From Oscillospiraceae bacterium (GTDB lineage Bacteria > Bacillota > Clostridia > Oscillospirales > UBA929): a DNA stretch of 64,000 nt. The notes under the pieces were generated by a model. That model was not told the origin of the DNA. It made no database searches and saw nothing but the letters and a program-made list of their open reading frames with translations. Below are positions 708-63,038 of the stretch, piece by piece (position 1 is the first letter of the stretch; each line of letters starts with the position of its first letter). Both the position numbers and the translations under genes were made by a program. Location of the stretch: positions 66,514-130,513 of the forward strand of contig WRKO01000003.1 of NCBI GenBank assembly GCA_009782215.1, written 5' to 3'.

Positions 708-3393
<2,686 letters not shown>

Positions 3394-3430
3394 ACCGCAC
3401 CGCCTCCAGACGAATCGTTTGTACAGAGTT

Positions 3431-3459
3431 ACTCTACCACAGCCGCGAGGGCTTGTCAA
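3431..3459 (-). promoter_or_regulatory. sigma-A-type promoter for the membrane-protein/ligA unit
   Basis: Reverse strand reads TTGACA, 17 nt, TAGAGT, with TGn immediately upstream of the -10. Confidence 0.4.
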
Positions 3460-3484
3460 ATGGAAATTTGTTATTATTTCCCAT

Positions 3485-4225
3485 TTACTGTACCGCTCTG
3501 AACAAATCCTCCACCTGAAAGTAGCTGTCCGGCACCGCGCCGACGATGACCGTCTCCGCGATGGAAACCTGCGTGCCGACCTGTGTGCCGATGCTGTAGC
3601 CCGGCAGCAGGACATGGACGTCAACGGTGATATCCATCATAATCTGATGGCGGGTCTGGTTGATGCCGGCGGCGGAAAACTGATTGGAAAACCCGGCGCT
3701 CACCGTGCCGAGGGGGACGATTTTCAAGGGAATCCTCGGCCCCCGCCCGCTGAAGATATCGCTGTTGATGAGGTTGCCCGCCGGGATGGACAATCCGGCG
3801 GTGTCAATCCGCTCAAGGGAGAGCAGGACTTCCTCGGTGATATCGGCGCGGAGGCGGTTGACCGAGATGATATCGGTCTTGAGGGCGGTGATTTGGCCGT
3901 ATATATCCTTTTCAAAGAAAACAAGGCTGCCGTAGGTCACATTGTCGTCGGTAATCCGCCTGACAATGGCCTGATTGATGACGCGGGACGCCAGACGATC
4001 CACCTCCACCCGCGCCATCTGCGTCATAATGGGACGCAAATGGTTGCCGATGTAATAATTGCCGAGGAAAAACACCGCCAGACCGGCGGCAATCGCTGCC
4101 AGCAACGGAAAACGCCGGATACGCCCCGGCGCGGCCCTGCGGCGGCGGAGACGGAATCGGACAGGAAGCCCGCGCGCCCGCGCGGCGCGGAGCCTGAGCG
4201 AAAAACGATGGCTGAAACGGCGCAT
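3485..4225 (-). CDS. yunB: sporulation protein YunB
   Basis: Basic N-terminus (MRRFSHRFSLRLR...), a single TM helix (FPLLAAIAAGLAVFFLG), then the YunB-type body (..IMMDITVDVHVLLPGY..IVGAVPDSYF). The longer ORF-track form (to 4360) runs through the 21-bp repeat into AT-rich island DNA and is rejected. Confidence 0.75.
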   Translation of the reverse strand: MRRFSHRFSLRLRAARARGLPVRFRLRRRRAAPGRIRRFPLLAAIAAGLAVFFLGNYYIGNHLRPIMTQMARVEVDRLASRVINQAIVRRITDDNVTYGSLVFFEKDIYGQITALKTDIISVNRLRADITEEVLLSLERIDTAGLSIPAGNLINSDIFSGRGPRIPLKIVPLGTVSAGFSNQFSAAGINQTRHQIMMDITVDVHVLLPGYSIGTQVGTQVSIAETVIVGAVPDSYFQVEDLFRAVQ

Positions 4226-4256
4226 GGCATGACCCCCCCACTGCAATCTATGCGGG

Positions 4257-4277
4257 GGCTGCGGGGGGTTATGCCCT
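4257..4277. repeat. left copy of a perfect 21-bp direct repeat GGCTGCGGGGGGTTATGCCCT
   Basis: Identical 21-mer recurs at 6969..6989. This copy lies about 30 nt upstream of the yunB start. Confidence 0.9.
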
Positions 4278-4504
4278 TTGTGGCGTTTTCTTTGCCTAAT
4301 TCTTGCGAGTATTTCTTTATATCCTTGTCGGTAGTTTGCAAATTCGCCAGTAGATTGCAATAAACTCCCAAACTGAACAAAGGTTTTTGGAGCGTTCTTA
4401 ATCAGGTGTGGCTATTTGTGTTCGCCACTGCGATGGTTGTGACATCGCCTAAGTGAGAGTTTAATTGATTGACGTCCCTCGCGCATATAATCATTACATA
4501 GCTC

Positions 4505-4534
4505 TTGACTTTAATTATAAGGTTGTGTTACAAT
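4505..4534 (+). promoter_or_regulatory. sigma-A-type promoter for island genes A and B
   Basis: TTGACT, 18 nt, TACAAT, with TGn extended -10. Confidence 0.5.
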
Positions 4535-4604
4535 ATAACGAGCAATGGGGGTAATAAAAATATATCCGCCCTCCAAAAGAGTATTACTACAGGAGGACAA
4601 GTTT

Positions 4605-4928
4605 ATGATGATGGTAAGTAAGATTATTGCAGGTAAATACGCTGGTTGTAAGATGCTCTATAGTAAAGTTTACGGTCACATAAAGATAGAATCTACTGGT
4701 GTTTATGTAGACAATAAGACCGTGGAATCTGTCGAATTCGGCGGTAGCGAAGACGACTTCAGAACGGGACAAGCTGTTGTCGGAGCCGCGTTGCTCGGCC
4801 CCATAGGATTGCTAGTTGGCGGAAACAACAAAAGGTATAGTGTTATACTTAACTGGAGAGATGGCGAGAGGTCACTTTGTGACCTAAACAAACAGGAATA
4901 CGAAGCGATACAAATGCGGTTTTTTTAG
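4605..4928 (+). CDS. small hypothetical protein (107 aa) with a Gly-zipper-like hydrophobic segment
   Basis: ATG at 4605 preceded by AGGAGG. The sequence contains GQAVVGAALLGPIGLLVGG followed by a short beta-like segment (YSVILNWRDGERSL). No family recognised. Confidence 0.55.
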   Translation: MMMVSKIIAGKYAGCKMLYSKVYGHIKIESTGVYVDNKTVESVEFGGSEDDFRTGQAVVGAALLGPIGLLVGGNNKRYSVILNWRDGERSLCDLNKQEYEAIQMRFF

Positions 4929-4963
4929 AGTGAGTCACAGCAATACTAGGTGGAAAGAAAGGG

Positions 4964-5494
4964 TTGGTTTTCGTGGCTCTTATTAATTGCCCTGAATGTC
5001 AAAAAGAAATATCAGACAAATCCCCGGCGTGCGTTGGATGCGGTTTCCCGATTGTACAACCCGTTGATGAACTATATAAGCTAACACTAGACCATAGAGA
5101 GATTCGCCCTTCGGTGGCGGCTGAGTTTGACCGATACCTCATGGATGTTATGGGTGTTTGGGAGAACGACGATGCGTACTCTAAACTCTATAGTATGTTA
5201 GTTGCTTTAGACGACTTCCCTCAAGTTATTCTCGAAAATATCTCTTACGAAGACGCTATAGCAACACAAAGCAAAATCGAATCATTCGGTGGTAGAACAT
5301 CAATCTACCGCATGAGTGAGCGTGTCGTAAAGAAGGATATCGCCGGCGTCGCAAAATGCCCCACCTGTAGCTCCACCAAATTAAAACAAATCGGAGCAGC
5401 CAACAAAGTAGGAGCCGCAGCGCTGTTCGGGGTTCTAACTGTTAGTCATGTGGGGAAGACGTTCAAGTGTGGGGACTGTGGGTATAGTTGGTGA
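4964..5494 (+). CDS. double zinc-ribbon protein, unknown function
   Basis: N-terminal CPECQ...CVGCG ribbon. C-terminal CPTC...(hydrophobic VGAAALFGVLTV)...CGDCG is a split ribbon with a LITAF-like arrangement. The middle segment FPQVILENISYEDAIATQSKIESFGG loosely resembles the L7/L12 C-terminal fold. The start may instead be GTG at 4973. Confidence 0.6.
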   Translation: MVFVALINCPECQKEISDKSPACVGCGFPIVQPVDELYKLTLDHREIRPSVAAEFDRYLMDVMGVWENDDAYSKLYSMLVALDDFPQVILENISYEDAIATQSKIESFGGRTSIYRMSERVVKKDIAGVAKCPTCSSTKLKQIGAANKVGAAALFGVLTVSHVGKTFKCGDCGYSW

Positions 5495-5563
5495 GTGTGG
5501 GTTGTTGGCAAAGATGTGAGGCTGGCACTATTTCATTTGTTGCTGAAATAAGTAGTCGATTAG

Positions 5564-6673
5564 TTATAGTCCAAGCCTCTTTGCACTAGCAACGATTTCT
5601 CCGTAAATCTCATCATGAGTATCTAAATCAAAGTCGGCTAAAAAACCAAGATCGGCTTCCCAGATAGGTATAGAGTGATAGTGTCTAGGGTTATTTTTGT
5701 TACGCCACAACAAGTAGTTTAGATGCTTAGATATTTCATATTTTTTCATTTGCTTACAAGAAAGAATAGTGGCAAGCCTTGTACGCCTAGTATCTTCAGA
5801 AATTTTTGTATTATATCCAAGTATATTCAATAGAGAACGCTCACTACCTTCAGAAATAAGGTAATATCCTTTGTGTTCATTGTAATAGATTTTCCCGTCT
5901 TCAGAAAATACTTTCACAAGAAGATTATGATGCCTTTCTTGATATATTTGAAATATGTTATCTTCAACAAAATATTTATCACAGTGTAAACACCCATGTA
6001 CATATATATTTTCAACACTTACATTTCCCTTTGAATTACTACACAATACTTTGGCCTTGACCTCCTTAATATCGTGACCATTTCTATAACAGTGAACAAA
6101 CCCGAAACACAAACGGATTTCTTTGATAACATTTTGCAAATCAAGACAGTTTATTTGATTATTGTCACGAGTAAAAATATGATTCTTTGCGTAAAAATCA
6201 AACCTACTTTTCAGAGAGATATAAGCGTCTTCGACAGATATATTTCTCCCGCAATTTTGGGCTACATGAATTATGTGGGAAATAACACAAAAATCGAGTT
6301 CTCTCAGATAGACATCAAACGAGACAATACGCGGAACAAATGATGCGCTATCAATACTATATGTGAACATATTAAAGAGATGACTCTTCTTAATAACAGA
6401 ATAATTAATATAGATAGAGTATTCTTCAGAAAATAACACCTTGTGTTCTTTTAAGAACTTACTCAGCGGCGGTTTGAAGCAAACTATCGCGGAATAAGGA
6501 TTTAGCATTTTATCATCGCCTTGTATTGATGCAGAACATTTCTGAAGATATTTTATGTATTTTTCAGAAGATGTGCAATATACGTTATATAGTTCATCAT
6601 AGAGTCCAAGAGCGATTAACTTTTTTGTCGTAACAACCCTCTCGTTATTATTAAGGTAATTTCTGACACTCAC
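5564..6673 (-). CDS. hypothetical protein (about 369 aa), no recognisable family
   Basis: AT-rich codon usage typical of the island. ORF-track start 6694 (TTG) lies only about 10 nt from the predicted TSS. GTG at 6673 follows GAGGGAGAGAG and is preferred. Contains a possible Zn site (HC...CLHC) and a basic C-terminal segment. Confidence 0.55.
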   Translation of the reverse strand: MSVRNYLNNNERVVTTKKLIALGLYDELYNVYCTSSEKYIKYLQKCSASIQGDDKMLNPYSAIVCFKPPLSKFLKEHKVLFSEEYSIYINYSVIKKSHLFNMFTYSIDSASFVPRIVSFDVYLRELDFCVISHIIHVAQNCGRNISVEDAYISLKSRFDFYAKNHIFTRDNNQINCLDLQNVIKEIRLCFGFVHCYRNGHDIKEVKAKVLCSNSKGNVSVENIYVHGCLHCDKYFVEDNIFQIYQERHHNLLVKVFSEDGKIYYNEHKGYYLISEGSERSLLNILGYNTKISEDTRRTRLATILSCKQMKKYEISKHLNYLLWRNKNNPRHYHSIPIWEADLGFLADFDLDTHDEIYGEIVASAKRLGL

Positions 6674-6703
6674 ACTAACTCTCTCCCTCAGCAATTTGCA
6701 ACA

Positions 6704-6732
6704 ATATTATCACAGAAGAGAGTACGTGTCAA
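6704..6732 (-). promoter_or_regulatory. sigma-A-type promoter for the 369-aa island gene
   Basis: Reverse strand reads TTGACA, 17 nt, TAATAT, with TGn. Confidence 0.5.
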
Positions 6733-6771
6733 CCATCACAACCCCAATCCACACCAATCAATACATCTATA

Positions 6772-6870
6772 CCAGACCAAATTAGAGAACTGGCAAAGCT
6801 GAAAGACGAAGGGTTGTTGACGGAGGAAGAGTTTGAGATTAAGAAGAGTGAGCTTCTGGCGAAGATGTAA
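6772..6870 (+). pseudogene. start-less SHOCT-domain remnant
   Basis: Frame translates to PDQIRELAKLKDEGLLTEEEFEIKKSELLAKM*, a classical SHOCT (short C-terminal domain) sequence. The open frame (from 6679) has no ATG/GTG/TTG, and its upstream part is occupied by the opposite-strand promoter. Not in the ORF track. Confidence 0.5.
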
Positions 6871-6871
6871 A

Positions 6872-6900
6872 AATCCCGCCCATAGGCAGGATTCTTTATT
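6872..6900 (+). terminator. rho-independent terminator after the SHOCT remnant
   Basis: AATCCCGCC / GGCAGGATT stem (one mismatch), 4-nt loop, followed by CTTTATT. Confidence 0.55.
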
Positions 6901-6968
6901 GAAACCATATGGCTTCCACACCACCCCACTCGTGCGCAGCCCATTTATGTTGTCAATGGGTATTTTAC

Positions 6969-6989
6969 GGCTGCGGGGGGTTATGCCCT
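6969..6989. repeat. right copy of the perfect 21-bp direct repeat
   Basis: Identical to 4257..4277. On the reverse strand it supplies the last two codons and stop of yggS (AGG GCA TAA) plus 12 nt of 3' flank. Confidence 0.9.
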
Positions 6990-7625
6990 CGCGCCGAACA
7001 GGGCGGAGCCGACGCGGATCATGTTGGCTCCGGCGCGGATGGCCGCCTCGTAGTCGTCGCTCATGCCCATTGACAGGATTTCAAGCCCATACGCCCGATA
7101 GAGGTCAAACAGCCGCCGCATCTGCTCAAAATACCGCGTTTCACCCGGCGGGGGGATGCACATCAGCCCCCGTACGCGGAGGTTCTTCAGCGCGGACATG
7201 GTGTTCAGCGCGGACGGCAGGCTATCCGGCGCGAAACCGCCCTTTGTTTCCTCCAGAGCGATGTTCACCTGCGCCAGCACGGGCTGGACAACCCGCAGCT
7301 TCCCGGCGCAGTTGTCGATTGTCTCCGCCAGCGCCATTGAGTCCACCGAATGGATGAGCGATACCCTTCCGACGACCTTGGCTGCCTTGTTTTTTTGCAA
7401 GCGGCCTATAAAATGCAGCGGCACGCCCCCGTAGGCGCCCAGCGCGTCTTTTTCCACAAGTTCCTGCACACGGTTCTCCCCCGCCGCGTCCACTCCGGCG
7501 GCAACCGCTTGGCGCACGGCTTCCGCCGTCTGGGCTTTGCACGCCGCCACCAGCGTGACGTTTCCGCCGCCGCCCGCCTGCTCGGCACGCCGCCGTATCT
7601 CTTTTATGTTTTGGGCGATGTTCAA
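6981..7625 (-). CDS. yggS: YggS-family pyridoxal-phosphate homeostasis protein
   Basis: 214 aa. Matching segments: VTLVAACKAQ (PLP lysine region), GENRVQEL, HFIGRLQKNKAAKVV, IHSVDS, LSMGMSDDYE.AI..GA..IRVGSALFG. Confidence 0.9.
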   Translation of the reverse strand: MNIAQNIKEIRRRAEQAGGGGNVTLVAACKAQTAEAVRQAVAAGVDAAGENRVQELVEKDALGAYGGVPLHFIGRLQKNKAAKVVGRVSLIHSVDSMALAETIDNCAGKLRVVQPVLAQVNIALEETKGGFAPDSLPSALNTMSALKNLRVRGLMCIPPPGETRYFEQMRRLFDLYRAYGLEILSMGMSDDYEAAIRAGANMIRVGSALFGARA

Positions 7626-7641
7626 TCAGGCCACTCCCCAC

Positions 7642-7670
7642 TTGAAATATTCCGGTGTTTATACTATTAT
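7642..7670 (+). promoter_or_regulatory. candidate promoter for pncA-nadV
   Basis: TTGAAA, 17 nt, TATTAT. Confidence 0.4.
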
Positions 7671-7701
7671 TATATTATCTGATACGCGGAGGCATTGCAA
7701 G

Positions 7702-8247
7702 ATGAAAAAGGCGCTCATTGTCATTGATATGCAAAACGATTTTATCACCGGAGCCCTCGGCTCTCCGCAGGCGCGGGAGGTCGTGCCGAAAATCGCGGAC
7801 AAAATACGGAAGCATCTTCACGGCGGTGGGGACGTCTTCTTCACGCGGGACACGCATGGCGAGAATTATTTAGAGACGGCGGAGGGCAGGCATTTACCCG
7901 TGCCGCATTGCCTCAAGGACAGCGAGGGATGGCAGATTTCCGCCGCGCTGACCGACGCTTTGGGGGACGCCCCTGTCCATATATTTGACAAGACGACGTT
8001 CGGCAGCTTGGATTTGGCGCGCTTTTTAAGCGGAGAGGGGTACGGCGAAATAGAGCTTGCCGGTCTGGTGGCGTCTATTTGCGTTGTTTCAAACGCCTTA
8101 ATCCTCAAGGCGCATCTGCCGGAGACGGCGATTACCGTGGACGCCGCCTGCACCGCCGGGGTCGGCGACGAAGACTATCTGGCGAGCCTGTGCGTGATGA
8201 GGATGTGCCACATCGGCGTTATCAGCGGGGACGAAACCCATGACTGA
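7702..8247 (+). CDS. pncA: isochorismatase-family cysteine hydrolase, probable nicotinamidase
   Basis: ORF trimmed to the ATG at 7702 (GGAGG upstream). IVIDMQNDF (Asp), FDKTTF (Lys) and ASICV (Cys) form the triad pattern. TRDTH...H..PHC resembles the PncA metal site. Confidence 0.7.
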   Translation: MKKALIVIDMQNDFITGALGSPQAREVVPKIADKIRKHLHGGGDVFFTRDTHGENYLETAEGRHLPVPHCLKDSEGWQISAALTDALGDAPVHIFDKTTFGSLDLARFLSGEGYGEIELAGLVASICVVSNALILKAHLPETAITVDAACTAGVGDEDYLASLCVMRMCHIGVISGDETHD

Positions 8248-25975: not shown

Positions 25976-26035
25976 CCCCCAACGCGGTCAAATTTTCCCG
26001 TCCCAACGCCTGCAACCGCCAAACAGACTTATATT

Positions 26036-26064
26036 ATTATACCAAAGGCATATCATTTTAGCAA
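26036..26064 (-). promoter_or_regulatory. candidate promoter of the pil operon
   Basis: Reverse strand reads TTGCTA, 17 nt, TATAAT, with TGn. Confidence 0.5.
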
Positions 26065-26103
26065 GCGTTTTTTATCGGGGGAGAAGTGGGGGTGCTTATT
26101 ATC

Positions 26104-26340
26104 TCATTTCTCAATTTCGATTCCACAGTATCTGCACCGATATACTTGACGAACGGATTGCCCAGAACTATGACCTTGCCATGTGTATGTTTTTGTGCCA
26201 ATATACTCCGTGTCGTTATGTATACATGAAAGTCTCTTTTCCTTTTCTTTCTTTGCATTTTTTATGATAAAATATATCGGCAATATACCCATCGACAGAA
26301 TAATTAACACGCCGATAATCCCAGTCGCAACCTCACCCAT
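26104..26340 (-). CDS. small membrane protein (78 aa) with a C-terminal Cys pair
   Basis: GAGGAGG SD. TM helix GIIGVLIILSMGILPIYFII, a basic linker, and C...CRYC. Has its own promoter. Confidence 0.5.
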   Translation of the reverse strand: MGEVATGIIGVLIILSMGILPIYFIIKNAKKEKEKRLSCIHNDTEYIGTKTYTWQGHSSGQSVRQVYRCRYCGIEIEK

Positions 26341-26413
26341 AATACACCTCCTCTATAAATTACTATATTCCACGCCCCACATCAACGCCGAGCGCGGAAA
26401 AGATTTCTTGGTC

Positions 26414-26442
26414 ATTTTAACACATTTTTATAGGAATGTCAA
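26414..26442 (-). promoter_or_regulatory. promoter of the 78-aa gene
   Basis: Reverse strand reads TTGACA, 17 nt, TAAAAT, with TGn. Confidence 0.5.
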
Positions 26443-26461
26443 ACAAAAAAAGAAGATTTAA

Positions 26462-26845
26462 TTAAAACACACATTGAACATCATACTTTTGGATGTCTTC
26501 ATCCGCGGTTATGAGCGTCATATTTTCGGCGAGGGCAGTTGCGATAATGAGCCTGTCGAACGGGTCGCGGTGGTGAAGCGGCAGGGTAAAAAGCCGTTCT
26601 ATGTGTTCGTCCCGTATGGGCAGGACGTTAAAGTAATTGTCGTTTATAAGTTGGCGCAGAGCTGAAAAACCGCCGAGAAATTTATATTTACCGATATTCA
26701 TTTTAAGCGCGACTTCCCATAACGAAACGACACTGACGAAGCATTGATTCGTAGGACTGAAAATATTTGATTTGGCTTTATCGGACAGCTTAATATCGTT
26801 TTCAAACAGCCAAAGCACTATTTGAGTATCAAGTAGACATTTCAT
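26462..26845 (-). CDS. vapC: PIN-domain toxin (VapC family)
   Basis: 127 aa. LLDTQI at the N-terminus, SLWEV, and DPFDRLIIATA..LITAD are typical PIN acidic-residue motifs. 4-nt overlap with the upstream antitoxin. Confidence 0.85.
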   Translation of the reverse strand: MKCLLDTQIVLWLFENDIKLSDKAKSNIFSPTNQCFVSVVSLWEVALKMNIGKYKFLGGFSALRQLINDNYFNVLPIRDEHIERLFTLPLHHRDPFDRLIIATALAENMTLITADEDIQKYDVQCVF

Positions 26846-27081
26846 TCCATATACTTCCTTAACTCTTCAAGGGGGGCGTTGAAGTCGTCGGCTGTCCATG
26901 TTTTACCTTTCATGCAGCCGAACAGAGCCTTTCGTCTTTCAACAATTTCTTCGGGTGTTATAGGGTTTGTCATAGGTTTAGGCTCTACCATAACCATGTC
27001 GCGCAGGAAAATGCTAACCGCCCTCAAAGTGTTTTCCGGCAGCAGTTCGATGTCTCTGTGCAGTTGTTGTCTGAGTTCCAT
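26842..27081 (-). CDS. type II antitoxin partner of VapC
   Basis: 79 aa, translationally coupled to the PIN gene. Its position and size are typical of an antitoxin. Confidence 0.65.
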   Translation of the reverse strand: MELRQQLHRDIELLPENTLRAVSIFLRDMVMVEPKPMTNPITPEEIVERRKALFGCMKGKTWTADDFNAPLEELRKYME

Positions 27082-27121
27082 ATCATCACCTCTTTCAGAC
27101 TGTTAAGGGATTTCCGCAGTA

Positions 27122-30994: not shown

Positions 30995-31674
30995 AAACTA
31001 ACACGTTCATGGCGGCGGAATGTCCATGTGCCGAAGGCTAGTTCATATACCATTTCATCAAAACCAAGAGGATCAGTATGATTGTCGTCGGCTTCCAGCA
31101 ATTCTGCGCCACCGACAAGATGATAGGTTGTAACCGACACAACTGTTAGACCTCTGTACTCCGCTTCGACCGTAACCCACAGCTCACCGCCAGAATAGTA
31201 TTCTCGCTGGCTAATATGCGCTTTTGAAGGGCTTCCGGGATGTGTTATAATCTCCTCTCCGCTTTCTTCATCTAGTTCCTTTGTTGGCTCAACAGCCACC
31301 ACATACGGACTGCATGGGCGGGACGTATGCCCTCTCAATTCGCCACTCACAGTGATTTGAAATGTTACGCCGTCCCATCCATACTCTTCGTCAAGCTCCA
31401 TATTTATTGCGTGTCCGTCATCATCATTATACGCCATCCAAAAAAGTTGCGCTTTGAATTCATCCTGATTTATCAGTTCCCTCAGGGTTAGTTCCATGCT
31501 GTTGACGTAGAGGTTGAGCTGGTTTTCGGCGCGGGCGGAGGCGGCGGCGCCGAGGTTGGCGCCTGCGGCGGTAAGGGCGGAGACGCCTATAGCCATCAGC
31601 AGCAGCATCGCCGCCAACACAAACAGCATTGACGCGCCGCGCCTGTTCCGTATCACGGTTTTACCTCCCCGCAC
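30991..31674 (-). CDS. PilX-like minor pilin
   Basis: N-terminus NRRGASMLFVLAAMLLLMAIGVSALTAAG resembles the PilX/GspK-type N-terminal segment (no Glu at +5). The start overlaps the giant gene's stop by 14 nt. Confidence 0.6.
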   Translation of the reverse strand: MRGGKTVIRNRRGASMLFVLAAMLLLMAIGVSALTAAGANLGAAASARAENQLNLYVNSMELTLRELINQDEFKAQLFWMAYNDDDGHAINMELDEEYGWDGVTFQITVSGELRGHTSRPCSPYVVAVEPTKELDEESGEEIITHPGSPSKAHISQREYYSGGELWVTVEAEYRGLTVVSVTTYHLVGGAELLEADDNHTDPLGFDEMVYELAFGTWTFRRHERVSF

Positions 31675-34600
31675 AGCGTTTGGCTTTCCGGTTTTTGCTT
31701 AGTTTCCGTCTTTTTAACAGTTGCTGAATGGACAGACCCCCGGCAAGGACGACCGAATCGTAAGGGGACGGCGCGCCGCCGCAGGTGCATTCGCAGACGC
31801 ACCCGTCGTCACACGCGCAAGCGTCGAAGCAAGCGCAGGGTATCGCGGCGGCCATCATCTCAAAGCTCCGCCCGGCAACAGCCCCCAACTCCTTCGGTTT
31901 TGAAGCGTCAACCTCAACGTCGATTTTCATTATCTCCGAGGATAAGATTAACCCGGCGGCTTCAAGCTCAACGGAATAGTAGATGGTAAATTTGTCTGCC
32001 TCATATTCGTGCCAATCGGCTAGAGCGCTATCTATCGGCAGCAGCGTTATGACAAGCTGAACCGCGCTGCCATCGACGGCTTGCAGCAACTCGATGATAT
32101 GCACACGATTTGCCTCGGTTCCTCTTGCAATCCTGACCTCATAATTACCGTTTGCGTTTCTTGCCGCCTTAACCCCTTCTTCATTGTACAGCACAACCTC
32201 CGGCCTGACGGCATGACCGCCGTCACCTCTTATCTTTTCCAAAAGGTCGCCCAGCAAGTCAATAATGATACTGCCCGGCACGCCGAAAGGGCCCGGCGTT
32301 ATCTCTTCGGGGTCTATTTTAATGGATTTATTTTCAGCTTCAATCGGTATGCCCACAACCGTCCTCGGGAAATTCAGCCTTGCCGGAAGCAAGCCGTATC
32401 CCACCTGCGTAGCCAACTCAAACATATACCGATAATCCGCCGTCACGCTGTCGAAAATCACGCCGTGGTCGTCGCCGTCATAAGTCAAAGTATAAGAGCC
32501 GCTCCATGTATCAGGACTCAAAGCGGTAGACGCCTGCTCTAAATCCACCGATTTGGTCAAGCGGGTGAAGCCGTCCGTCGTACCCGGCTCTATTACCAAG
32601 CCGACTATGTTCGATACTGCAAACTCCGGCGGAATGACAACGGAAATGACGCCGTTCGTGCTGATTACGGCAGTGGTTTCCGCTGTCAGTGTGACCTCGA
32701 AAACGCCGCCACCCAAGTCCTCAACTTCCTTTTCCAGCTTCACCGGGTCGATGAACACCTGCACCGCGTCTCTATCCGAAGCGTTGTTCTTTGTGTTTGC
32801 ATTGTCGGTATACGGGGCAAGACGGCCGACATAACCATTCCCGAAAGCGCTGTCCCGATAACTTACCGTAGCTTGGTTCCTGATATAATAGTGCATCGTA
32901 TCCGCCGGAGTGGGGTCATCGCCACTACTATTTTGGATGTCAAATCTAATTTGGATGTCAAAGGTCACTGTAAGGACAGCGTTTGAAGCCAATGTGCCGA
33001 GACCGTCAATCGTCAGCTTTCCGCCGACAGGGGCGCCGCTCCGCGCCGAAGCATTTACTTTTACGCTTCCCGGCACAAAGTCATAGTATCGGTCAAAGGG
33101 AGCCAGTATGTCCTCGATGACAATATCGCCAACCGTCACCTCGCCGTGGTTCCTCACCGTCAGCTCCACCGTCAGCACATCGCCCGGCTTGACAAACTTG
33201 ACTTCCCTCCCGTCATCGTCCAGCACCCTCTTGTCAATCGACAAGAATCCGGGAGACTGGAAGGTGATACCGGCGAGGTAGTTGCCTTGTTTGGGGTCGT
33301 TCAGCGACGCGGATTCATACGCAAACTCTGTATAGTTCTGCCCCTCGGGAATGGTGTATAAGCCGTAATATTGCTTCCATTCACTGATACGCCCGGTATA
33401 CGTAGTAGGAGTAAGGCTTGGTCTGTAATAATCGGTTCTGACTAAAGCATTAGTGCTGTTATTATATATTTCAATACATAATTCCCTGCCGTTGCTCCAA
33501 GTGTTATAAGTGAACCTATATCTGTATGTGACTCCACCAGCGGTTGTTGTATAGCGCGTTCCATCCGTGTTGAGCAAATCAACATATGTGCCATCAGCAA
33601 CACTCAGTGTAAAGAGTGTGGTTAAGTTCGCATTTACAAAATCATTGCTTAACCTTCCTCCAGCTCCGGTTCCGCTTCCTGAGTTGTTGTACGCATAGGT
33701 TGTCATTTGGTATGTCGCTCCCGGCAGATACGCCACATCCCAATAGCCGATGATGTTCTTTTCTGCATCATCTCGGAGCGACGCCGGCAAATCGGATATG
33801 GTATTATAGTTATTGGTTAAGGTTGTAACCCCTTCCTCCGACCAGAACGTAATGCCAAGCCCCGGCCCGTTCAGCCAAACATCGTAAAGATACGCTGTTC
33901 TTTCATCTTCTATTACAGAATCATAAAAGCTCACTTCTCCGTACATGATGGTGTCCCTCGTCTGAGGCATACCCGTTGCAGAGCCTCTCTTTGTTGTGGC
34001 GGGACGAATGATCGTCTGCTTTCCGTCCACGTATTCCCATATCCCGTCATTGTTTGTCATGTCGGAAAGATAGAATTTCAGCGTGTCTGTGTTGTTGTTA
34101 AAACGGGCGGCATGGTAGAATGAGTAATACGTTTCCGTTCCGGGGAATGTATGGCTAATTTGATAGAGCGTTCCGGGAATTTCTGCGTTCAGCTCGGCGT
34201 AAACGCCTGTTGCCGTACCCATATAGTTCGTTCGGGCGCGTCCACTATCCGCCAAAGGATGCGGATTTTGGAACTCGATTGAATATATTTGGTCTAAAGT
34301 GGCATCACTAAGGGTTATGTCTGCGGCGGGACGCGTATTCCATCCCTGCACCCAGCTTTGATGGGCATATATCCACTGGTGAGACCAGTTTCCGCTATCT
34401 ACACGGGGGCCTGCCGGGAATATCAACCCCGGTGCATTGTTCACAAGATTGAACGCGCCCGAAGTAAACTGTGAAACGACCTCGTAAGACTGGTCTGGGT
34501 CGTTTGGGTTCATCAGCGGCATATCAAAGTCTCCGTTGATAAACCCTATGCTTCCGACGCTGTTGCTGCTTAGCGTCGGTTCCCACGCGGGGCCGTGCAA

Positions 34601-37600
34601 CAGGGGGTTGTCGTCGTCGATATCCGCCGCTCTGTCTGCGCGGTCAACTTGGTCTAGGCGCACCGGGCCGTTGGTTTCGGGCCAGTTTTGCGGGGCGGCC
34701 GCATTGTTCAGCAGCGGGTAGTGATACCCGGCGGGGGGCTGGTTCCATTTCGCCCATTCAGCGATTTCAAACTCACCGCTCTTTGCAATTAAGGGGAGGA
34801 AGTCAAGGTTCAGGAACGAGGCGTAGAGTCCTTGTCCGCCGCCCACAACATTTGCCGCCAACGGCGGGATGTTGTAATTCCCGGCAATCCAGTTTGCGGC
34901 AGGGCCTTGATTGCCCTCAACCGTATATTGCCTGCCGTAGATATAGAAAGCGTCGCTGACGTTGGGGACTGTGGCGTCATCGTCGTCGTCATCGTCTACC
35001 GCTCTGCCCTGTATGGGGAAGATGTTGATGGTATCCCCGCTCACTTTCGGCGCGGGCGCGAGGTAGAGGGCGCGGCTGACGGCGTTGCTCCCCGCGTCGC
35101 CGACGATGCCGCCGACGTTTTCGCTCCCGGTTATGGGGGATTCTGTTTCCGTGCTGAGGAAGAAAACATCTGAGATATCTCCTTCGGTTTTCCCGATAAG
35201 CCCGCCGACGTTGGTTTCGCCGGCGACTTTGACGTTTTCCGCATAGCTGTCGCTGACTTCGCCGCTGACATGGCCCGCCAAGCCCCCGACATTGGTTTCG
35301 CCGGTGACGCTCTTGCCGCGGACGTATGAGCCGAAGACGCTCGCCGCGCTGCCCGCCACGCCGCCGGCGTTGGCGCTGTTCGCATTAACGGTGACATTCA
35401 CCGCGAAACTGCCCATCACGACGTTGACTTTCCCCACTACGCCGCCGACATTGGTTCCACCGCTGACGCTGCTCGCGCCGCTGACGGAGGAGCCGGTAAC
35501 ACTCGCCGTGCTGCCCACTACGCCCCCGATGTCGTTGCCGCCGTTGACGGTCACGTCTACCGCATGGCTGTTGCTGACGCTCGCCGCGTTGCCCACCACG
35601 CCCCCGGCGTTGCTGCCGCCGGTGACGGTCACGTCTACCGCATGGCTGTTGCTGACGCTCGCCGCGCTGCCCACCACGCCCCCGGCGTTACTGCCGGTGG
35701 CGGTTACGGTGACATTGGCCGCAGTCATGCCGGATATCCCCGCACTATTATCCTCAAGGCCAATGATGCCGCCGACGTTGCTGCCGCCGCTGACAGTGTT
35801 GGCGCCGCGCAGCTCAACCCCGCTGACCGCCCCGCTGTTTGTCCCCGCCAGCCCGCCGACGTTATCGCCGCCGCTGACAGCGCCGTCGTACAGCTCAATC
35901 CCACTGACCGCCCCGCTGTTTGTCCCCACCAGCCCGCCGACGTTATCGCCGCCGCTGACAGCGCCGTCGTACAGCTCAATCTCTCTGATTGTCCCGCTGT
36001 TCGTCCCCGCCAGCCCGCCGACGTTATCGCCGGTGCCGGTAACCGCGTTGTTTCTGAGTATGAGATTTTCCACACGTCCGTCCGCGCCGATTTGCGAGAA
36101 GATACCAACATTGCCGCCGCCGTTGATTTTGCCTTGGTCGTTGGTGGCGGTTCCGATGTTTTTGATGGCTTTTGAATTGCCGTTGTATTGGCCGGTGAAG
36201 TTGCCTTGTACGACGGAAGCGGTGATGTTGATGTTGGTTCTGTCTGCGTTGATGAATCCGTTTGAACCTGAATCTGTCCCAGAAGTTGTAGTATTTGTTG
36301 GATTCTGATATCCGGTTGTTGTATTCAATCCGCTAAAATCAATATCAATCTCCTGCCTGTATTTACCGCTACGGGTACTGGAATCTTTTCCGATGTTATT
36401 CAGATGTCTCGGCGTCCGTATTGTATACTCGTAATTTGAAATATCGGGAACAGAGTTCAATGACCAAATCGCTTTTCCAAACAACGGATTGATATAACCG
36501 TCAAAATAATCGGCTTTTTCGGCGTTGCCCTGACCTATTGTGACCCGAATCGGTTCGATGCCGTTGTCGTCCGGCATATGGCTGATTAAGTCTTCCAGAT
36601 TGAACACAACATAAGATTCACCGCCAAGCGCCGGTATCTCTCCCGACTCGCCTGTCTTTCCTTCGTGGAGTACATCTCCGTTCATCTTTCTAACCATATA
36701 CGCACCGCTATTGCCGGGCATGGTTGTAAACGCTATATAGCCGTCTTCCAGCACCTTTTGGCTGTAATCCAACTTATCATCATTATATCCGGCCCAAAGC
36801 CCATATTTCTCTCCGGTTTTTTCATTCACATCTGGATAAATCTCATAATACGCGAATCTAAGCACCGTAGCGTCCGGCTCCGGCCAATGTGGTATTGCCT
36901 GTTCCGTCAATGCCGCCAAGCGCGGATATGGAATATTGTTGGAACCTTGCACCCAACGCCCGCTACTCGGCGTTACTCCGTTCAATGTTGCTCTCGCGTT
37001 TTTCAAATCGTCCACATTCGTGGCACGCCCTCTTCCCGCATCTACATTGACGTTATAGCCTGTTACTCGGAGATACAACACCGTGTTGTTCAATCCCCCC
37101 GGTGATGCTGTTCCGATTACGGGATTGAAGTCATCACCAAAATAGGCGGTGCTATACGCATTTGACAGGGTGCCGCCATCAATAATACCTACAAGTCCTC
37201 CGGTAGAAGCAGTCGTCCCGAACACAGACCGCTCCCAGTTATTTACCTGCGGCGAGTTGTTACCATAATTATAAAACACATTCTGAACCGAGCCGTCGCC
37301 TATATACCCGACCACACCGCCGACGTTCGTTGAACCATCCTTGCCAACCCTCGTAAAGTCCACATAGCAAATGCTAATGTTCCCCGAGGACTGCCCCGCG
37401 ATGCCGCCGACATAATTGTTGCCCACCACTTCATTGAAAGAGCTTCCGCTTCGCATCCCAGCAAACGACTGCGTAATCGTCCCCGCGTTCGTCCCAGCGA
37501 TGCCGCCGACGTTGCTCGTACCTTCAACCGTAACCCCAAGCACACGGCTCCCGGTAATCGTCCCTTCGTTCGTCCCCGCGAGGCTGCCGACGTTTTCGTT

Positions 37601-47557: not shown

Positions 47558-50500
47558 TTATTTGCCGAAGGCTTTCACGATGTTGGACATGATGGCCGCA
47601 ATCTGTCCGCGGTCAATCGTCATGTCGGGGCTGAAGCTGGCGCCGCCCGTGCCGCTCACGATGCCGTGGCCCGCGAGGAACTCAATCGCATCCACAACCG
47701 CCGCGTCCAGTCCGTCAATGTCGTCAAACTCCGCGCCGGCTTTGACGCTGACCTTCACGCCGCTCTTCACGATGAAGTTGTAGATGATAACCGCCATGTC
47801 GGCGCGGGTCACCGCTTCCGTATAATCCTCAATATCCAGCCCGGCGAAGATACCAAACTCCTCGCCCCATGTGATGTGGTCGCCGTCCGCCCAGACAAGC
47901 TCCGCGCCCAGTCCAAGGTAGTTGCTCAGGACAGCCGCCAGCGTCTGATAGGTAATCGGGGCTTCCGAGTTGAAGCGTCCCGCTTGGTCGCCCACAAAGA
48001 TGCCTCTCGCGCCCGCGAACACCGCGTGGCCGCTCGCCCACGTGGGAATCGTATCGGTGAACGTCACGGGGTTGTAGCCGATGACGAACTTCGAGAAGTG
48101 GTTCGTGACGAAGTACACGAAGCCGTCGTCATAGTAGCCTCTGATGACGTCCAGCTCGCCGTCCGCGTTGAGGTAGTACACCACAATCGCTTCGGCGTCT
48201 TCGCCGTCGCCCAGCTCGTACGGAATCGCGATGCTGATGGTGCCGCCGCCGAACTCCGTGACCGCCACGCCGTTGACCAGCACCGAGAAGTCATACACCG
48301 GCCGGTCTTCCACAAGCTCCGCCACGTCGTCGTCCAAGGTCTCAACGTCCACGGCCTCAACCACAAACTCAACCGTCACGCCCTCGCCGAAGATGGTCTC
48401 CAGCGCCTCGAGGTCGAGCGTAAACGTCGCCTCAATGTCGCCCTCCAGCTCAAACGTCAGCGTAAAGTCGTCGTCGCCGTTCTCAATCGCTTCCGCAATC
48501 TCTTCCAAAATCTCCGCAACCTCTTCCGCGCCAATCGTCAGGTCGCCCACTTCCGGCTCGCCGTCCGGCTCGGTCGGCTCCTCCGGGTCGGTCGGCGTGG
48601 TCGGCGGGATGAAAATGTCGCCGCCTTCGTCGCCGGTGTTGCCGCCCGCTGCTTCCTTAGCGGCAATCTCGGTAGCCAAATCGTCAAGCAGTTCTTCTTC
48701 TGCTTCTAGCAGCCCTTTAGAGGAGGTGTGCAGCAAGTTAAACGCTGTCTGCGCAACTGTCACAGCCGCTTTGTCGCTAATTTCGATGTTTGCAACCGTC
48801 TTGGCAAGGATGGTCGCGTGGGCATCTTGCCAGTCTTTCGCCGCTTTGGTATACCCTATGTTGTCAATCACGTCCTCTAGGTCAGAAAAGTCATCCAAGT
48901 CTTCCGCTAACTCCCTGCTCACGCTTTCGTAAGCGTCAATCGCAATGTTTATGCTCGCAAGGATTAGCAAGTAGTCATTAAGGCTCGCGATTGGCGGCGC
49001 CGAGTCTTTCAATCCCGACGTATTCGCCCACGAAATCCACAGCTTAACATTCTCTTCCAGCGCGGCAATAAGGCTGTCACGAGTGGCTGCAATGGTCACA
49101 GCCGTCACGCCCTCCAGCGCCAACAGAGCCTTCGCGCCATCACTCAGCCAGCCAAACTCCGTCAACGCTTCCGGCACGTAGGTAAAGTCATCCACAAGGG
49201 CTTGAACCTCCGCGTCGCTCAGTCTGCTACTCGGATTTGTCACAACCAATGTCAGCTCGTCCGCGTAGTCAAGCAAGAAGTCAACCATTTCGTCCACTGC
49301 GTCGTTCACGGCGTCAATCGCGTCTTGCAGTGTCCCAATGTCCGTGATATTGAACATGTCTTCGGTGACGATTAAGAGGAAGTAAGCCTCCATGTTGCCC
49401 ACGTCAAGGTTATCCAACCCGGCAGCGGCAACCTCTCCAATCAGGTTAAGCCTCACCCACAGCACACCAGCGTTGTCAGTAGAGCCAATCTCACCAATCC
49501 AAGCATTCACCGCCGCAAGGTTCACGCCGTCGATGACGCCCTTAATGGCGGCTACGAACAGCTCGAAGTCAGCTCGGGCGGGGGTGCCGTTAGTCACATA
49601 GTCATCCCAGTCGTCTGCGCCCAAACTGTCCGCCACGGCGTCAATCGCGTCTTTGAAGTCTTGCAGCGCGGCTATGTAGAAATCCCTCACGTCGAAGAAG
49701 AGGTTGGAATAGCTGTCGGTCGCGTAACCCAGCGCAATCAGGAGCCCTTCCGTGTCACCCGCCGTGTAATCGTACACCTCTACAATCAAGTCTGGCCAAA
49801 CGTCCCCAATAATCGCGTCATACAGGGCGTTCAGTTTATCTTCCGTTCCGGCGGACAAGTAGTCTTTAGCTTCAGCGCTCAATCCGTTGAAATCAACCCG
49901 CGCCCTGAGAATGTCGTTCGCCTCACTGTAGTTATCATCCAATGGATTCAGCAACAGCACATCGCTATAGGTATCCTCAAAGTTCAGCGCACTCCACTTC
50001 GCCAGCAGGTCGTCGTGGTGGTCTTTCACTGCCACCACTTCGGGTCTCGCTTTCAGCGCAGGTGACAACATATCATAAACGACGAGAGCGGCGGGAAGTT
50101 TACCGAGGTCGGACAATGCTATAGTGCCCGTTGTCAAATCCATTATCGCCACGATATTGGTGTCCGCCAAGAACGCATCGACAAATCCCAAAATCTCAAG
50201 CTCATCTTCCAAGGCTTCCAAGCGCGCAATGTCATCAGCCAGCGCGGTCAGCACCTTGTCGAAGCTCGCCCATTTGCCTGTGGTTCTAACGTCTGCCAGC
50301 GCGGCATTTACGAGCGCTGTGTCAGCAGTCAAGGTTGCAATCGCAAGCTCCTCAACCACCAGCTCCAGCGCGTCATCATGGTCGTCCCTAAAGATGGCAA
50401 CCGCAGCGTCAACCAAGTCAGTCTCAACGTCCAGCTCCGATTCCAAAAGTTCCTGAGCGACTTCGCTAAGGTCATAATAAGCACTCAGCGTATCTTGCAC

Positions 50501-61887: not shown

Positions 61888-62487
61888 TTATTCCCATCTA
61901 AATTCGGGGTCATTCTTTTTCAAACCTTTTGGTATCTTGTCTGTTCCCTTTTTATATTGTGTTATTCCAATAATTAACCCTAATAGGGAAAAAGAAACGA
62001 GAATTGAAACGGGTAAATACTTTAAATATTCAATATCATTTGTAAAATAAGAAATTACAAGCATTAGCAAAAAGCCAAATACTAAACCGCCTGCCGACCA
62101 ATTTATTAATGTCTGTGTTGAGCGGCTATCCCATGATTGCTTTTTATTGCAAAACGGACATATCCCAAGAAGATTATTCCATATTTTCCCACCCGCGCCT
62201 TCTTCATATACCCCCGCCGCTTCTTTCATCATCGAAATATAATTTTTTACTTCAGCATATGATTTTATTTTCTCATAGCCTATTTGTAATTTTTTATTTG
62301 CTTCATCTTGTAAAGCCGTTGTTTCTTCGGGAGTTAATGATATGGTAGACGTGCTTTTCCTCAAACATGCTGAACGGGTAACCATTTCTGATTTCCAATC
62401 AGTTGTTTTTCCGCAATGTTCACAAATAAAACGATAATAAAAATTACGACTTGCGGAAACGGAAAACTCTTTATAATGGCTTGACAT
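61888..62487 (-). CDS. hypothetical Zn-ribbon membrane protein
   Basis: AT-rich ORF with CEHCG...CPFC Cys pairs and two C-terminal TM helices. Start at M6 of the ORF-track entry or at 62502. Confidence 0.5.
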   Translation of the reverse strand: MSSHYKEFSVSASRNFYYRFICEHCGKTTDWKSEMVTRSACLRKSTSTISLTPEETTALQDEANKKLQIGYEKIKSYAEVKNYISMMKEAAGVYEEGAGGKIWNNLLGICPFCNKKQSWDSRSTQTLINWSAGGLVFGFLLMLVISYFTNDIEYLKYLPVSILVSFSLLGLIIGITQYKKGTDKIPKGLKKNDPEFRWE

Positions 62488-62911
62488 ATATGCTCCTTTC
62501 AAAATTATCCAAATCTCTAAGATTTATATCATCATATTTTTTGAGCATTTCATTATTATAAAAAACCTCTATGTTCCCGGACGCATCTCCAAAATAATCA
62601 ACACCTCTATACGCCTTAAACGAATACCCTAATTTTATCCATTCTTCGTGGGGCAGAATACGAAACCATTTCCAAAAACCCAACGGCGGTATGCTTCTGA
62701 CTACAGCATTGGCGGAAGTAATAAACTTATCGTCTTTTGAAGTGCTTAAATCGCGCAATATGTTAAAATCAAGTTCCCTTTCATCTTCGTTTACATTGCT
62801 ATAACTTTCAGGCGAAATACTGCCGCACTCTTTACATCTGCTTCCCCTGTCCGAAGAATAAGCTCCATAGTGGCGACAGCCGCACTTACAAACCCAGTTC
62901 ATAATTTTCAC
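62471..62911 (-). CDS. hypothetical Zn-ribbon protein
   Basis: 146 aa. CKCGC...CKECG N-terminal Cys cluster. SD GAGGTG. Confidence 0.5.
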   Translation of the reverse strand: MKIMNWVCKCGCRHYGAYSSDRGSRCKECGSISPESYSNVNEDERELDFNILRDLSTSKDDKFITSANAVVRSIPPLGFWKWFRILPHEEWIKLGYSFKAYRGVDYFGDASGNIEVFYNNEMLKKYDDINLRDLDNFERSIYVKPL

Positions 62912-62975
62912 ACCTCAAATATAAATTTTCATACTCGCGCCCCTCATCACCGCAGAACGCTGATAACATTTCTAT

Positions 62976-63003
62976 ATTATAACACAGAAAACCGCTTTGT
63001 CAA
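62976..63003 (-). promoter_or_regulatory. promoter of the two Zn-ribbon genes
   Basis: Reverse strand reads TTGACA, 16 nt, TATAAT, with TGn. Confidence 0.5.
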
Positions 63004-63038
63004 TGCTTTTTGTAGGTTGTAAATGTGGGGAAACGTAC

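Follow-up and report, generated by a model that had tools for sequence, protein, structure and literature searches.

Remnants of cryptic prophages and of other integrative elements may keep both attL and attR after internal deletion, and a repeat copy lying over a conserved gene's 3' end is the classic geometry of an integrase target site. Cis-mobilisable elements (CIMEs) derived from ICEs of the ICESt1/ICESt3 type were reportedly described in Streptococcus thermophilus by Pavlovic et al. in 2004, and chromosomal integration hotspots lying between conserved core genes are said to have been described by Oliveira et al. in Nat Commun in 2017. IMEX elements encode no recombinase and carry direct repeats at their flanks, these being dif-like sites of 28 bp with two inverted Xer-binding arms.

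Here we describe a small low-GC island located between yggS and yunB in an uncultured, gut-type Oscillospiraceae bacterium, within a 64-kb window that comprises the whole stretch of DNA analysed (Table 1). The islet is real and of an ordinary kind. We read it as a non-autonomous leftover of an integrative element. The parent was most likely a temperate phage or a phage-like element, with the island corresponding to its att-distal accessory ('moron') end, and we give this reading a probability of roughly 0.6.

Table 1. Features of the yggS-yunB interval (coordinates are those of the 64-kb window).
Feature	Position	Strand	Remarks
yunB, left flanking host gene	3485..4225	-	Sporulation protein YunB; TIGR02832, 2e-44
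Promoter-like motif CATA-N17-CATAGATT upstream of yunB	4245..4273	-	Sigma-E type; putative function
yunB-side 21-bp repeat copy (att-like core)	4257..4277		Minus strand bears GCATAA, the -35-like element of the putative yunB promoter
Inserted low-GC island	4278..6968		2,691 bp; GC 0.391
Left non-coding part of island	4278..4604		GC 0.39
Promoter-like site TTGACT-18-TACAAT, for ORF A	4505-4534	+	Inside left non-coding part
ORF A	4605..4928	+	107 aa; full-length match to phrog_20920 (4e-11); weak PH_gly_zipper match
ORF B	4964..5494	+	176 aa; zinc ribbons at both ends; phrog_2546 (2e-5)
ORF C	5564..6673	-	369 aa; GC 0.33; alternative start 6694
SHOCT-domain gene fragment, 5'-truncated	6679..6870	+	PF09851, 1.8e-8; 63 codons, no start codon
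Promoter-like site TTGACA-17-TAATAT upstream of ORF C	6704..6732	-	10/12, with TG
Hairpin followed by CTTTATT, terminator-like, at end of SHOCT gene	6867..6899	+	dG -10.9, z -3.4
yggS-side 21-bp repeat copy	6969..6989		Gives yggS AGG GCA, stop TAA and 12 nt of 3' flank
yggS, right flanking host gene	6981..7625	-	PLP-binding YggS family, 214 aa; TIGR00044, 4e-50
Locus tags of island genes			FWG72_02290-02300

The island is bounded by the 21-mer GGCTGCGGGGGGTTATGCCCT, which occurs in two exact copies in the window. The count remained at two when three mismatches were tolerated, and none of 100 shuffles gave a match. Between positions 3500 and 7800 this direct repeat is the sole perfect repeat of at least 20 nt, and the identity between its copies ends sharply on both sides. 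The final 9 nt of yggS fall within the yggS-side copy, and the other copy ends 31 nt upstream of the yunB ATG at 4225. Composition changes at the same places: the flanks have GC contents of 0.62 and 0.58 versus 0.391 for the island, with steps located at most 50 bp from the inner repeat edges (from 0.64 to 0.36 on the left and from 0.50 to 0.74 on the right). These results agree with the initial annotation, which had placed the two copies at the same positions, recognised the right one as the last two codons and stop of yggS plus 12 nt, put the left one about 30 nt upstream of yunB and noted an abrupt switch to AT-rich DNA between them. Identical direct repeats at both ends, one of them over the end of a host gene, and a foreign interior bounded by these repeats are what is seen in site-specific integration.

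Beyond the window, the 21-mer had no match in IMG/VR and none in the JGI metagenome contigs, and 596 Gb of genomes yielded a single one, within an unrelated Rrf2-like gene of a Rhodospirillaceae MAG, which is a chance match. The alternative that the 21-mer might be a dispersed repeat, raised earlier as a finding that would undo the insertion hypothesis, is thereby ruled out. As the source is a metagenome assembly and the contrast in composition is strong, the joining of a low-GC fragment from another organism into the MAG contig was also considered. Such an artefact is highly improbable: an assembly graph of k=141 (the contig name is k141_...) cannot be bridged by a 21-bp repeat, both junctions coincide exactly with the repeats, which restore a functional yggS end as well as the putative yunB promoter, and ORF A and ORF C also occur together on a separate JGI contig (3,791 bp).

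Comparison with relatives supports an insertion. The collections held no conspecific genome; the best YggS relative among 5.8 billion proteins had 71% identity, and exact-protein look-ups with YggS, YunB and ORF C led back to the source assembly alone. In a relative with 68% YggS identity (L008), yggS is followed by a 53-nt spacer and then yunB, with no gene in between. For the locus under study, the reconstructed empty site reads ...CAATCTATGCGGG + 21-mer + CGCGCCGAAC..., and the predicted circular junction ...GGGTATTTTAC + 21-mer + TTGTGGCGTTTTC.... The L008 junction is colinear with the reconstructed empty site, in keeping with the proposal that the island entered a short yggS-yunB spacer; the 21-mer itself is not conserved at the distance of L008. 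In two further relatives this position is taken by low-GC cargo of other kinds (a 122-aa ORF, hicAB), which makes the site a small hotspot. As neither of these inserts has flanking repeats, insertions at the site need not all be mediated by an integrase. Two YggS relatives at a greater distance (P0005 and P0014) were uninformative, as yggS and yunB are not neighbours in them.

Use of yggS as a general prophage attB found no support. Scanning IMG/VR with a YggS profile gave two contigs; in one of them (L023, from a host of about 70% GC) the phage genes do not begin at the yggS 3' end, and in the other (L022) the remainder of the contig lies on the yggS 5' side. The viral, genome and metagenome collections yielded no cognate element, attP or integrase for the 21-mer; together with the lack of a conspecific empty site, this counts against our preferred reading.

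The upstream region of yunB deserves separate comment, because the island had been thought to cut this gene off from its upstream signals. This proved wrong. The motif CATA-N16/17-CATAGATT is conserved directly upstream of yunB in the window and in relatives L006 and L008. It is unique in the window, where 0.04 occurrences would be expected, for a pattern that was drawn up after the sequences were seen. In the window the motif spans the repeat and the native spacer, and it matches a -35 ATA and a -10 CATAnnnT at consensus spacing, as in the sigma-E consensus reported along with the sigE dependence of yunB in C. difficile (PMC3789822). On this basis the motif is probably a conserved sigma-E-type promoter. 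As its -35-like part is inside the yunB-side repeat copy, the duplication keeps the yunB motif intact. An att-type duplication can in this manner save two overlapping host signals together, a stop codon and the -35 element of a sporulation promoter.

The same overlap bears on a different origin of the repeats, namely a one-off illegitimate insertion, either by microhomology or end-joining capture of foreign DNA or into a pre-existing 21-bp tandem duplication, with the duplicated form surviving as the only one that spares the stop of yggS together with the promoter of yunB. As the repeat spans exactly the segment in which the yunB -35-like element overlaps the stop of yggS, selection would favour the duplication, and the repeat-free inserts of the relatives and the lack of a recombinase (see below) are compatible with such an event. 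The geometry of the repeats fits integrase att sites, however, and the cargo has phage affinity. Moreover, to our knowledge end joining or slippage does not normally give a perfect 21-bp duplication with foreign DNA exactly between the copies, as is found here. We consider this origin quite unlikely.

No recombinase or transposase family was found in the island with Pfam, NCBIfam, PHROGs or PADLOC, and its non-coding parts held no pseudogene fragment, including any of an integrase. Recombinases were likewise absent within about 10 kb on either side and among ten further ORFs of the window. The island ends carry neither terminal inverted repeats nor arm-type repeats, and no tRNA or Rfam RNA was found. 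The initial annotation, which had reported no recognisable recombinase and no terminal inverted repeat, is thus borne out. A transposon or insertion sequence was rejected, as there is no transposase, no inverted repeat at the ends, and a duplication of 21 bp versus 2-15 bp. With no integrase or other recombinase gene, the island is better described as a remnant than as an autonomous element.

An element without its own recombinase could still be functional if a CIME-like island with intact attL and attR were mobilised in cis or trans by an integrase whose gene lies at another locus of the genome or belongs to a related ICE or phage with the same yggS site as its target. The perfection of both repeat copies, the empty recombinase search inside the island and the varied cargo of the relatives, which suggests repeated use of the site, agree with this. 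Against it stand the missing cognate element, with the 21-mer absent from IMG/VR and the JGI contigs, the lack of a recombinase in the examined parts of the window, the relatives' inserts without flanking repeats, and the truncated SHOCT gene, which suggests decay rather than maintenance. This reading is therefore unlikely. Integration of an IMEX-type element by the host Xer recombinases at a dif-like site would also account for flanking direct repeats around an island without a recombinase. It has hardly any chance of being correct, as the 21-mer, judged by inspection only, is GC-rich, lies in the yggS 3' end and lacks two 11-bp inverted arms around a 6-bp centre, and the same junction in a relative is an ordinary gene spacer.

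Most of the cargo points to phages. ORF A shares 32.5% identity with gp01 of the Geobacillus phage phiOH2. The phiOH2 record is ordered as a prophage, and this homologue comes last in it, behind the endolysin gene and at the far end from the integrase. Homologues of ORF B (31-33% identity) are situated in phage tail or accessory regions, and the SHOCT fragment matches phrog_2700 (331 positions) and phrog_888 (271 positions) solely at their C-terminal ends. From these matches, ORF A, ORF B and the SHOCT fragment appear to belong with phage accessory gene families. The promoter-like sites before ORF A and ORF C and the hairpin with a T-rich tract after the SHOCT gene agree with the earlier view that the island has its own promoters and terminator, and the SHOCT gene is, as had been proposed, a remnant.

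The links of the island proteins to phages are remote (about 31-33% identity) and run to PHROG families of unknown function. Scans of IMG/VR with ORF A, ORF B and the SHOCT fragment turned up no relatives beyond an N-terminal zinc-ribbon match, and blastn of the island DNA against phage and plasmid records gave no match. The left non-coding part showed neither arm-type repeats nor any ORF fragment matching a family. Remote protein links, no DNA similarity to phage or plasmid records and no integrase pseudogene in the left part weigh against our preferred reading.

ORF C differs from the rest of the island. The island is a compositional mosaic, in which the left non-coding part, ORF A, ORF B and the SHOCT fragment have GC contents of 0.39-0.46 and ORF C one of 0.33. 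As its GC content is unlike that of its neighbours, ORF C is probably a later mosaic piece. Its promoter-like site overlaps the 5' part of the SHOCT fragment. Searches of Pfam, NCBIfam, PHROG and PADLOC assigned ORF C to no family, and neither tblastn against phage and plasmid records nor a protein-based scan of JGI contigs gave a match. Its C-terminal ~190 aa form an uncharacterised domain, composed of a CHCC zinc ribbon and a helical part with invariant Ser, Tyr, Arg and Asp positions, that is present in at least 414 protein clusters. In these the domain sits C-terminally behind many unrelated N-termini (Macro, LRR, Sel1, RNase III-like, PIN and MkoB-like). A profile of the domain gave only noise around the CxxC motif when searched against PDB sequences and Pfam. 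In a Foldseek search of the PDB with a model of the domain, the top matches were chains of large serine integrases, at non-significant values (E 0.04-0.5, probability ~0.2, TM 0.16).

ORF C is the sole candidate of sufficient size for an unrecognised recombinase, in which case the element would be autonomous; these matches, the invariant residues and the lack of any annotation speak for it. The resemblance is non-significant, though, and ORF C has no resolvase or recombinase domain of Pfam; a domain found behind many unrelated N-termini behaves like a binding module rather than a recombinase. Serine integrases are not known to leave 21-bp repeats, and the GC content of ORF C sets it apart as a probable later addition. 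An autonomous element is thus very improbable. Large serine recombinases combine a resolvase catalytic domain at the N-terminus with a recombinase domain and a zinc beta-ribbon domain; ORF C as such an enzyme was rejected (no Pfam family; best Foldseek E 0.04, TM 0.16), and an unrecognised recombinase in the island, one of the two options offered by the initial annotation, is unsupported, as no catalytic-domain match was obtained.

A broader proposal would make the interval at the yggS 3' end a dedicated landing site of this Oscillospiraceae lineage, at which small recombinase-free cassettes are inserted and swapped by a recombinase acting in trans or by an unrecognised activity linked to the ORF C domain, with the 21-bp core doubling as gene end and promoter -35. 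We regard it as distinctly improbable.

Under our preferred reading, a remnant of a phage or phage-like element, the island would have arisen by site-specific integration, probably catalysed by a tyrosine integrase, between an attP and an attB sharing a segment of identity, the attB consisting of 9 nt at the end of yggS and the 12 nt that follow. As the attP would have contained the same 21 bp, integration would have duplicated them, and the insertion would have been harmless because the yggS stop and both the -35 and -10 elements of the putative yunB promoter were retained. Subsequently, an internal deletion may have taken out the bulk of the element together with its integrase side, which would have adjoined the yunB-side repeat. 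The left non-coding part would be the place of this deletion, and ORF A, ORF B and the SHOCT-domain gene, all pointing to the yggS-side repeat, its survivors. Finally, the more AT-rich ORF C, with its own promoter, would have taken the place of the 5' part of the SHOCT gene. Consistent with this last step, ORF C and its promoter abut a SHOCT fragment that has neither its 5' part nor a start codon, and ORF C stands apart in GC content (0.33 versus 0.43-0.46). The island would now not be self-mobile and could excise only with a cognate integrase supplied in trans.

The locus has little significance past annotation, where it records a small islet gained by horizontal transfer and, downstream of yggS, a local hotspot of an uncultured lineage. 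The most reusable by-product is the domain family of ORF C, which is widespread and unannotated, may deserve a family description, and may merit testing for nucleic-acid binding or for a role in phage defence.

Among the known systems, the island most resembles cryptic prophage remnants, with which it shares an att-like core repeat having one copy at a host gene 3' end, a foreign composition, accessory genes with phage family matches and one truncated gene. The layout of phiOH2 (NC_021784) offers a parallel, as the ORF A homologue is there an att-proximal accessory gene opposite the integrase. Unlike prophage remnants, the island is just 2.7 kb long and has no integrase fragment, structural gene or phage DNA similarity. 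As in CIMEs, att-like repeats flank it at a housekeeping gene's 3' end and recombination and transfer modules are lacking, but its site has no known cognate ICE or integrase and its cargo is phage-like rather than ICE-like. Finally, as in the hotspots between core genes, the interval downstream of yggS is either empty or occupied by low-GC inserts, the 122-aa ORF, hicAB or the island, depending on the lineage; in contrast to those hotspots, one occupant here, the island, shows a clean 21-bp duplication, whereas the others have none.

The window contains exactly two copies of the 21-mer GGCTGCGGGGGGTTATGCCCT; no third copy was found with up to three mismatches, and 100 shuffles yielded no match to it. 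It is the only perfect repeat of at least 20 nt within 3500-7800, its identity stops abruptly at both ends, and the right copy, read on the minus strand, corresponds to AGG GCA TAA plus 12 nt, the end of yggS. Between the copies, GC content over 2,691 bp is 0.391, versus 0.62 on the left and 0.58 on the right, and the steps, from 0.64 to 0.36 on the left and from 0.50 to 0.74 on the right, fall no more than 50 bp from the inner edges of the repeats. The repeat positions, the overlap with yggS and the abrupt switch to AT-rich DNA described in the initial annotation were thus reproduced, and family matches confirmed its assignment of the flanking genes. No match to the 21-mer was detected in IMG/VR and JGI metagenome contigs, and 596 Gb of genomes contained a single one, a chance match within an Rrf2-type regulator gene that adjoins sufB in a Rhodospirillaceae MAG. 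The 21-mer is not a dispersed repeat.

Features of the island, its flanks and other stretches of the window
Feature	Position	Strand	Size	Characteristics
yunB	3485-4225	minus		TIGR02832 (2e-44); PF09560 (4e-30)
21-mer, left copy	4257-4277			ends 31 nt ahead of yunB ATG
ORF A	4605-4928		107 aa	phrog_20920, full length (4e-11); weak PH_gly_zipper match
ORF B	4964-5494		176 aa	zinc ribbons at both ends; phrog_2546 (2e-5)
ORF C	5564-6673	minus	369 aa	
ORF C C-terminal domain	5564-6133		~190 aa	CHCC zinc ribbon and helices
SHOCT fragment	frame ends 6870		63 codons	no start codon; PF09851 (1.8e-8)
21-mer, right copy	6969-6989			
yggS	6981-7625	minus		TIGR00044 (4e-50)
Low-GC islet	26000-27100			GC 0.41
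PIN-domain protein	26462-26845	minus		PF01850 (6e-21)
Large ORF	31661-40225	minus	2,854 aa	
Large ORF	47558-53986	minus	2,142 aa	
Low-GC stretch	61888-63458			GC 0.37 at 62-63 kb
Cysteine-rich ORF	61888-62502	minus		no known family
Cysteine-rich ORF	62471-62911	minus		no known family
GNAT acetyltransferase	63039-63458	minus		

The window comes from the MAG of an uncultured Oscillospiraceae bacterium, and the 132.6-kb NCBI contig that includes it exists also at ENA. Exact look-ups with YggS, YunB and ORF C retrieved the source assembly alone. We regard an assembly artefact as very unlikely. The nearest YggS among 5.8 billion proteins was 71% identical, and three of the nearest relatives, the loci L008, L006 and L005, were informative. 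L008 (68% YggS identity) shares the whole neighbourhood of the island (NAMPT-like gene, yggS, yunB, a 250-aa gene, ligA, sodA and a fucose isomerase gene), with a yggS-yunB gap of only 53 nt. Once the island and one repeat copy were removed, the window was colinear with this junction and 15 nt shorter, in agreement with the insertion into a short yggS-yunB spacer initially proposed. L006 (65% YggS identity) has the same synteny, with another insert, about 0.7 kb long, in the yggS-yunB interval, and the yggS-yunB adjacency is absent in more distant relatives. The short spacer of L008 and the other cargo in L006 and L005 (71% YggS identity) show the island to be an insertion, and in this lineage foreign cargo has a small hotspot immediately 3' of yggS.

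The L006 insert (6628-7330) is partly of low GC (0.42), has no flanking repeat, and contains a 122-aa ORF without known or Pfam family, a promoter-like site and a short signal-peptide-like ORF broken by a stop. In L005, the closest YggS relative, a hicA-hicB toxin-antitoxin pair (3292-3920, GC 0.44) begins 11 nt past the yggS stop, corresponding to the position of the island. Just downstream, the terminator-like hairpin AAGCCGCTTCCAACCGGAAGCGGCTTCTCT is directly repeated without mismatch over 30 nt (3943-3972 and 4092-4121) and with mismatches over about 47 nt; the two copies bracket some 100 bp of AT-rich sequence, possibly a further small scar of insertion or excision.

A block formed by xCATAx, 14-15 nt, CATAGATTG and then GGGGGGTCATGCCATGCG, otherwise rare in these diverged spacers, lies upstream of yunB in the window, L006 and L008 alike. 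The pattern CATA-N16/17-CATAnATT, set after viewing the sequences, occurs once in the window (4245-4273) versus 0.04 expected, and among 23 fetched loci it was found only at the equivalent place in L006 and L008 and in copies of the window locus. In mother-cell promoters of the sigma-E type, the -35 element is ATA and the -10 element resembles CATA, and yunB of C. difficile is down-regulated in a sigE mutant (PMC3789822). On these grounds we read the block as a putative yunB sporulation promoter followed by a ribosome-binding site. Its -35-like GCATAA in the window is the last codon and stop of yggS and lies within the 21-mer (4274-4269), so the duplication keeps the yggS end at one junction and the whole predicted yunB promoter at the other, contrary to the earlier claim that yunB has been cut off by the insertion from signals further upstream. 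A one-off illegitimate insertion, in which selection kept the duplication because both overlapping host signals were preserved, would also fit this arrangement, and we consider it unlikely beside site-specific integration.

The native yggS-yunB spacer (window 4226-4280, minus strand) could form a hairpin (dG -25.3; z -1.75, not significant) pairing the C-run just past the yggS stop with the G-run serving as the yunB ribosome-binding site. Speculatively, yggS read-through transcripts might mask this site, which transcripts from the sigma-E-like promoter would not.

Within the island, the SHOCT fragment aligns only with the last 50-55 positions of two phage families, phrog_888 (271 positions) and phrog_2700 (331 positions), and is therefore a 5'-truncated gene, the remnant first noted. 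It is followed by a hairpin and then a T-rich tract, and promoter-like sites lie upstream of ORF A and of ORF C, matching the promoters and terminators originally attributed to the island. As also reported there, integrase, transposase and relaxase genes and terminal inverted repeats are missing: searches of the island gave no match to any recombinase, transposase or relaxase family, and its ends carry neither inverted nor arm-type repeats. The non-coding parts held no recognisable gene fragment, the window contains no tRNA, and Rfam gave no match in 3000-8000. Recombinase genes were likewise absent from the gene tables of about 10 kb on each side and from ten further window ORFs. A CIME-like element that can still be mobilised by functions supplied in trans would be compatible with this absence and with the two perfect repeats, and is a possible but unlikely alternative; Xer-dependent integration is the least probable of all the readings.

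The island showed no DNA similarity to 50,697 phage and 72,556 plasmid records. At the protein level it has three connections with phages. Over 96% of its length, ORF A shares 32.5% identity with gp01 of Geobacillus phage phiOH2; homologues of ORF B (31-33% identity) occur among SPbeta-like tail genes in one MAG and, in other contigs, adjoin a 2,180-aa protein amid small unknown genes; and phrogs 2546 and 888 unite modules found apart in ORF B, ORF A and the SHOCT fragment. In the phiOH2 record, which is in prophage order, gp01 comes last after holin and endolysin, with the integrase gp60 at the opposite end. ORF A, ORF B and the SHOCT fragment read toward the yggS-side repeat, an orientation that att-distal accessory genes of a prophage would share, and hence the integrase would have been at the yunB-side repeat, now adjoined by 327 bp of non-coding DNA.

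ORF C matched no family in Pfam, NCBIfam, PHROGs or PADLOC, and a word-based search of the 5.8 billion proteins returned only ORF C itself. Exhaustive HMMER searching gave at least 414 cluster representatives at E <= 1e-3, mostly covering residues 175-365 only. The corresponding C-terminal domain (signature C-x4-H ... YCxxCxKYF ... ESxL...GYNV...LS...R..IL ... W..DL.F) has no Pfam family and no sequence relative among solved structures, and its alignment-based AlphaFold model, which is confident (pLDDT 87), shows a beta-rich zinc-ribbon part followed by helices. In relatives it stands C-terminal to many different N-termini, most of them unannotated and a few annotated as LRR_5, Macro, Sel1, RNase III-like, dsrm, PC4 or PIN; the closest relative has an MkoB-like N-terminus. 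Such variety is the behaviour of a binding module; this uncharacterised yet widespread domain perhaps binds nucleic acid, and perhaps serves in conflict systems. Foldseek searches against the PDB placed large serine integrase chains on top (E 0.04-0.5, probability ~0.2, TM 0.16) and MqsA-type zinc ribbons at lower ranks, with nothing significant in BFVD. These integrase matches are weak and give no evidence that ORF C is a recombinase, so the unrecognised recombinase allowed for in the initial annotation is very unlikely. ORF C is a later arrival in the island, since its GC content (0.33) is distinct from that of the left non-coding part, ORF A, ORF B and the SHOCT fragment (0.39-0.46).

Elsewhere in the window, a low-GC islet with a PIN-domain protein, which has genes for a type IV pilus ATPase and an ABC transporter on its two sides, shows no flanking direct repeat, and a low-GC stretch with two small cysteine-rich ORFs and a GNAT acetyltransferase has no convincing one. 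Two very large ORFs, whose nearby genes encode sortase, SLH and bacterial Ig domains, probably specify cell-surface proteins.

Since the identity left by serine integrases spans only 2 bp, and transposases produce short duplications beside inverted repeats, a tyrosine-type integrase is the likely agent. Site-specific integration would have joined an attB overlapping the yggS 3' end with an attP bearing the same 21 bp; most of the element, the integrase side included, would then have been lost in an internal deletion, and ORF C would later have taken the place of the 5' part of the SHOCT gene. We consider this whole history the most economical account, with a probability of 0.6. The core of the earlier proposal, a non-autonomous insertion with an att-type duplication, is supported by the repeats, the composition, the relatives and the recombinase searches. 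Decay of integrated elements is known to leave recombinase-less islets with flanking att repeats, and the island is probably a further example of this outcome.
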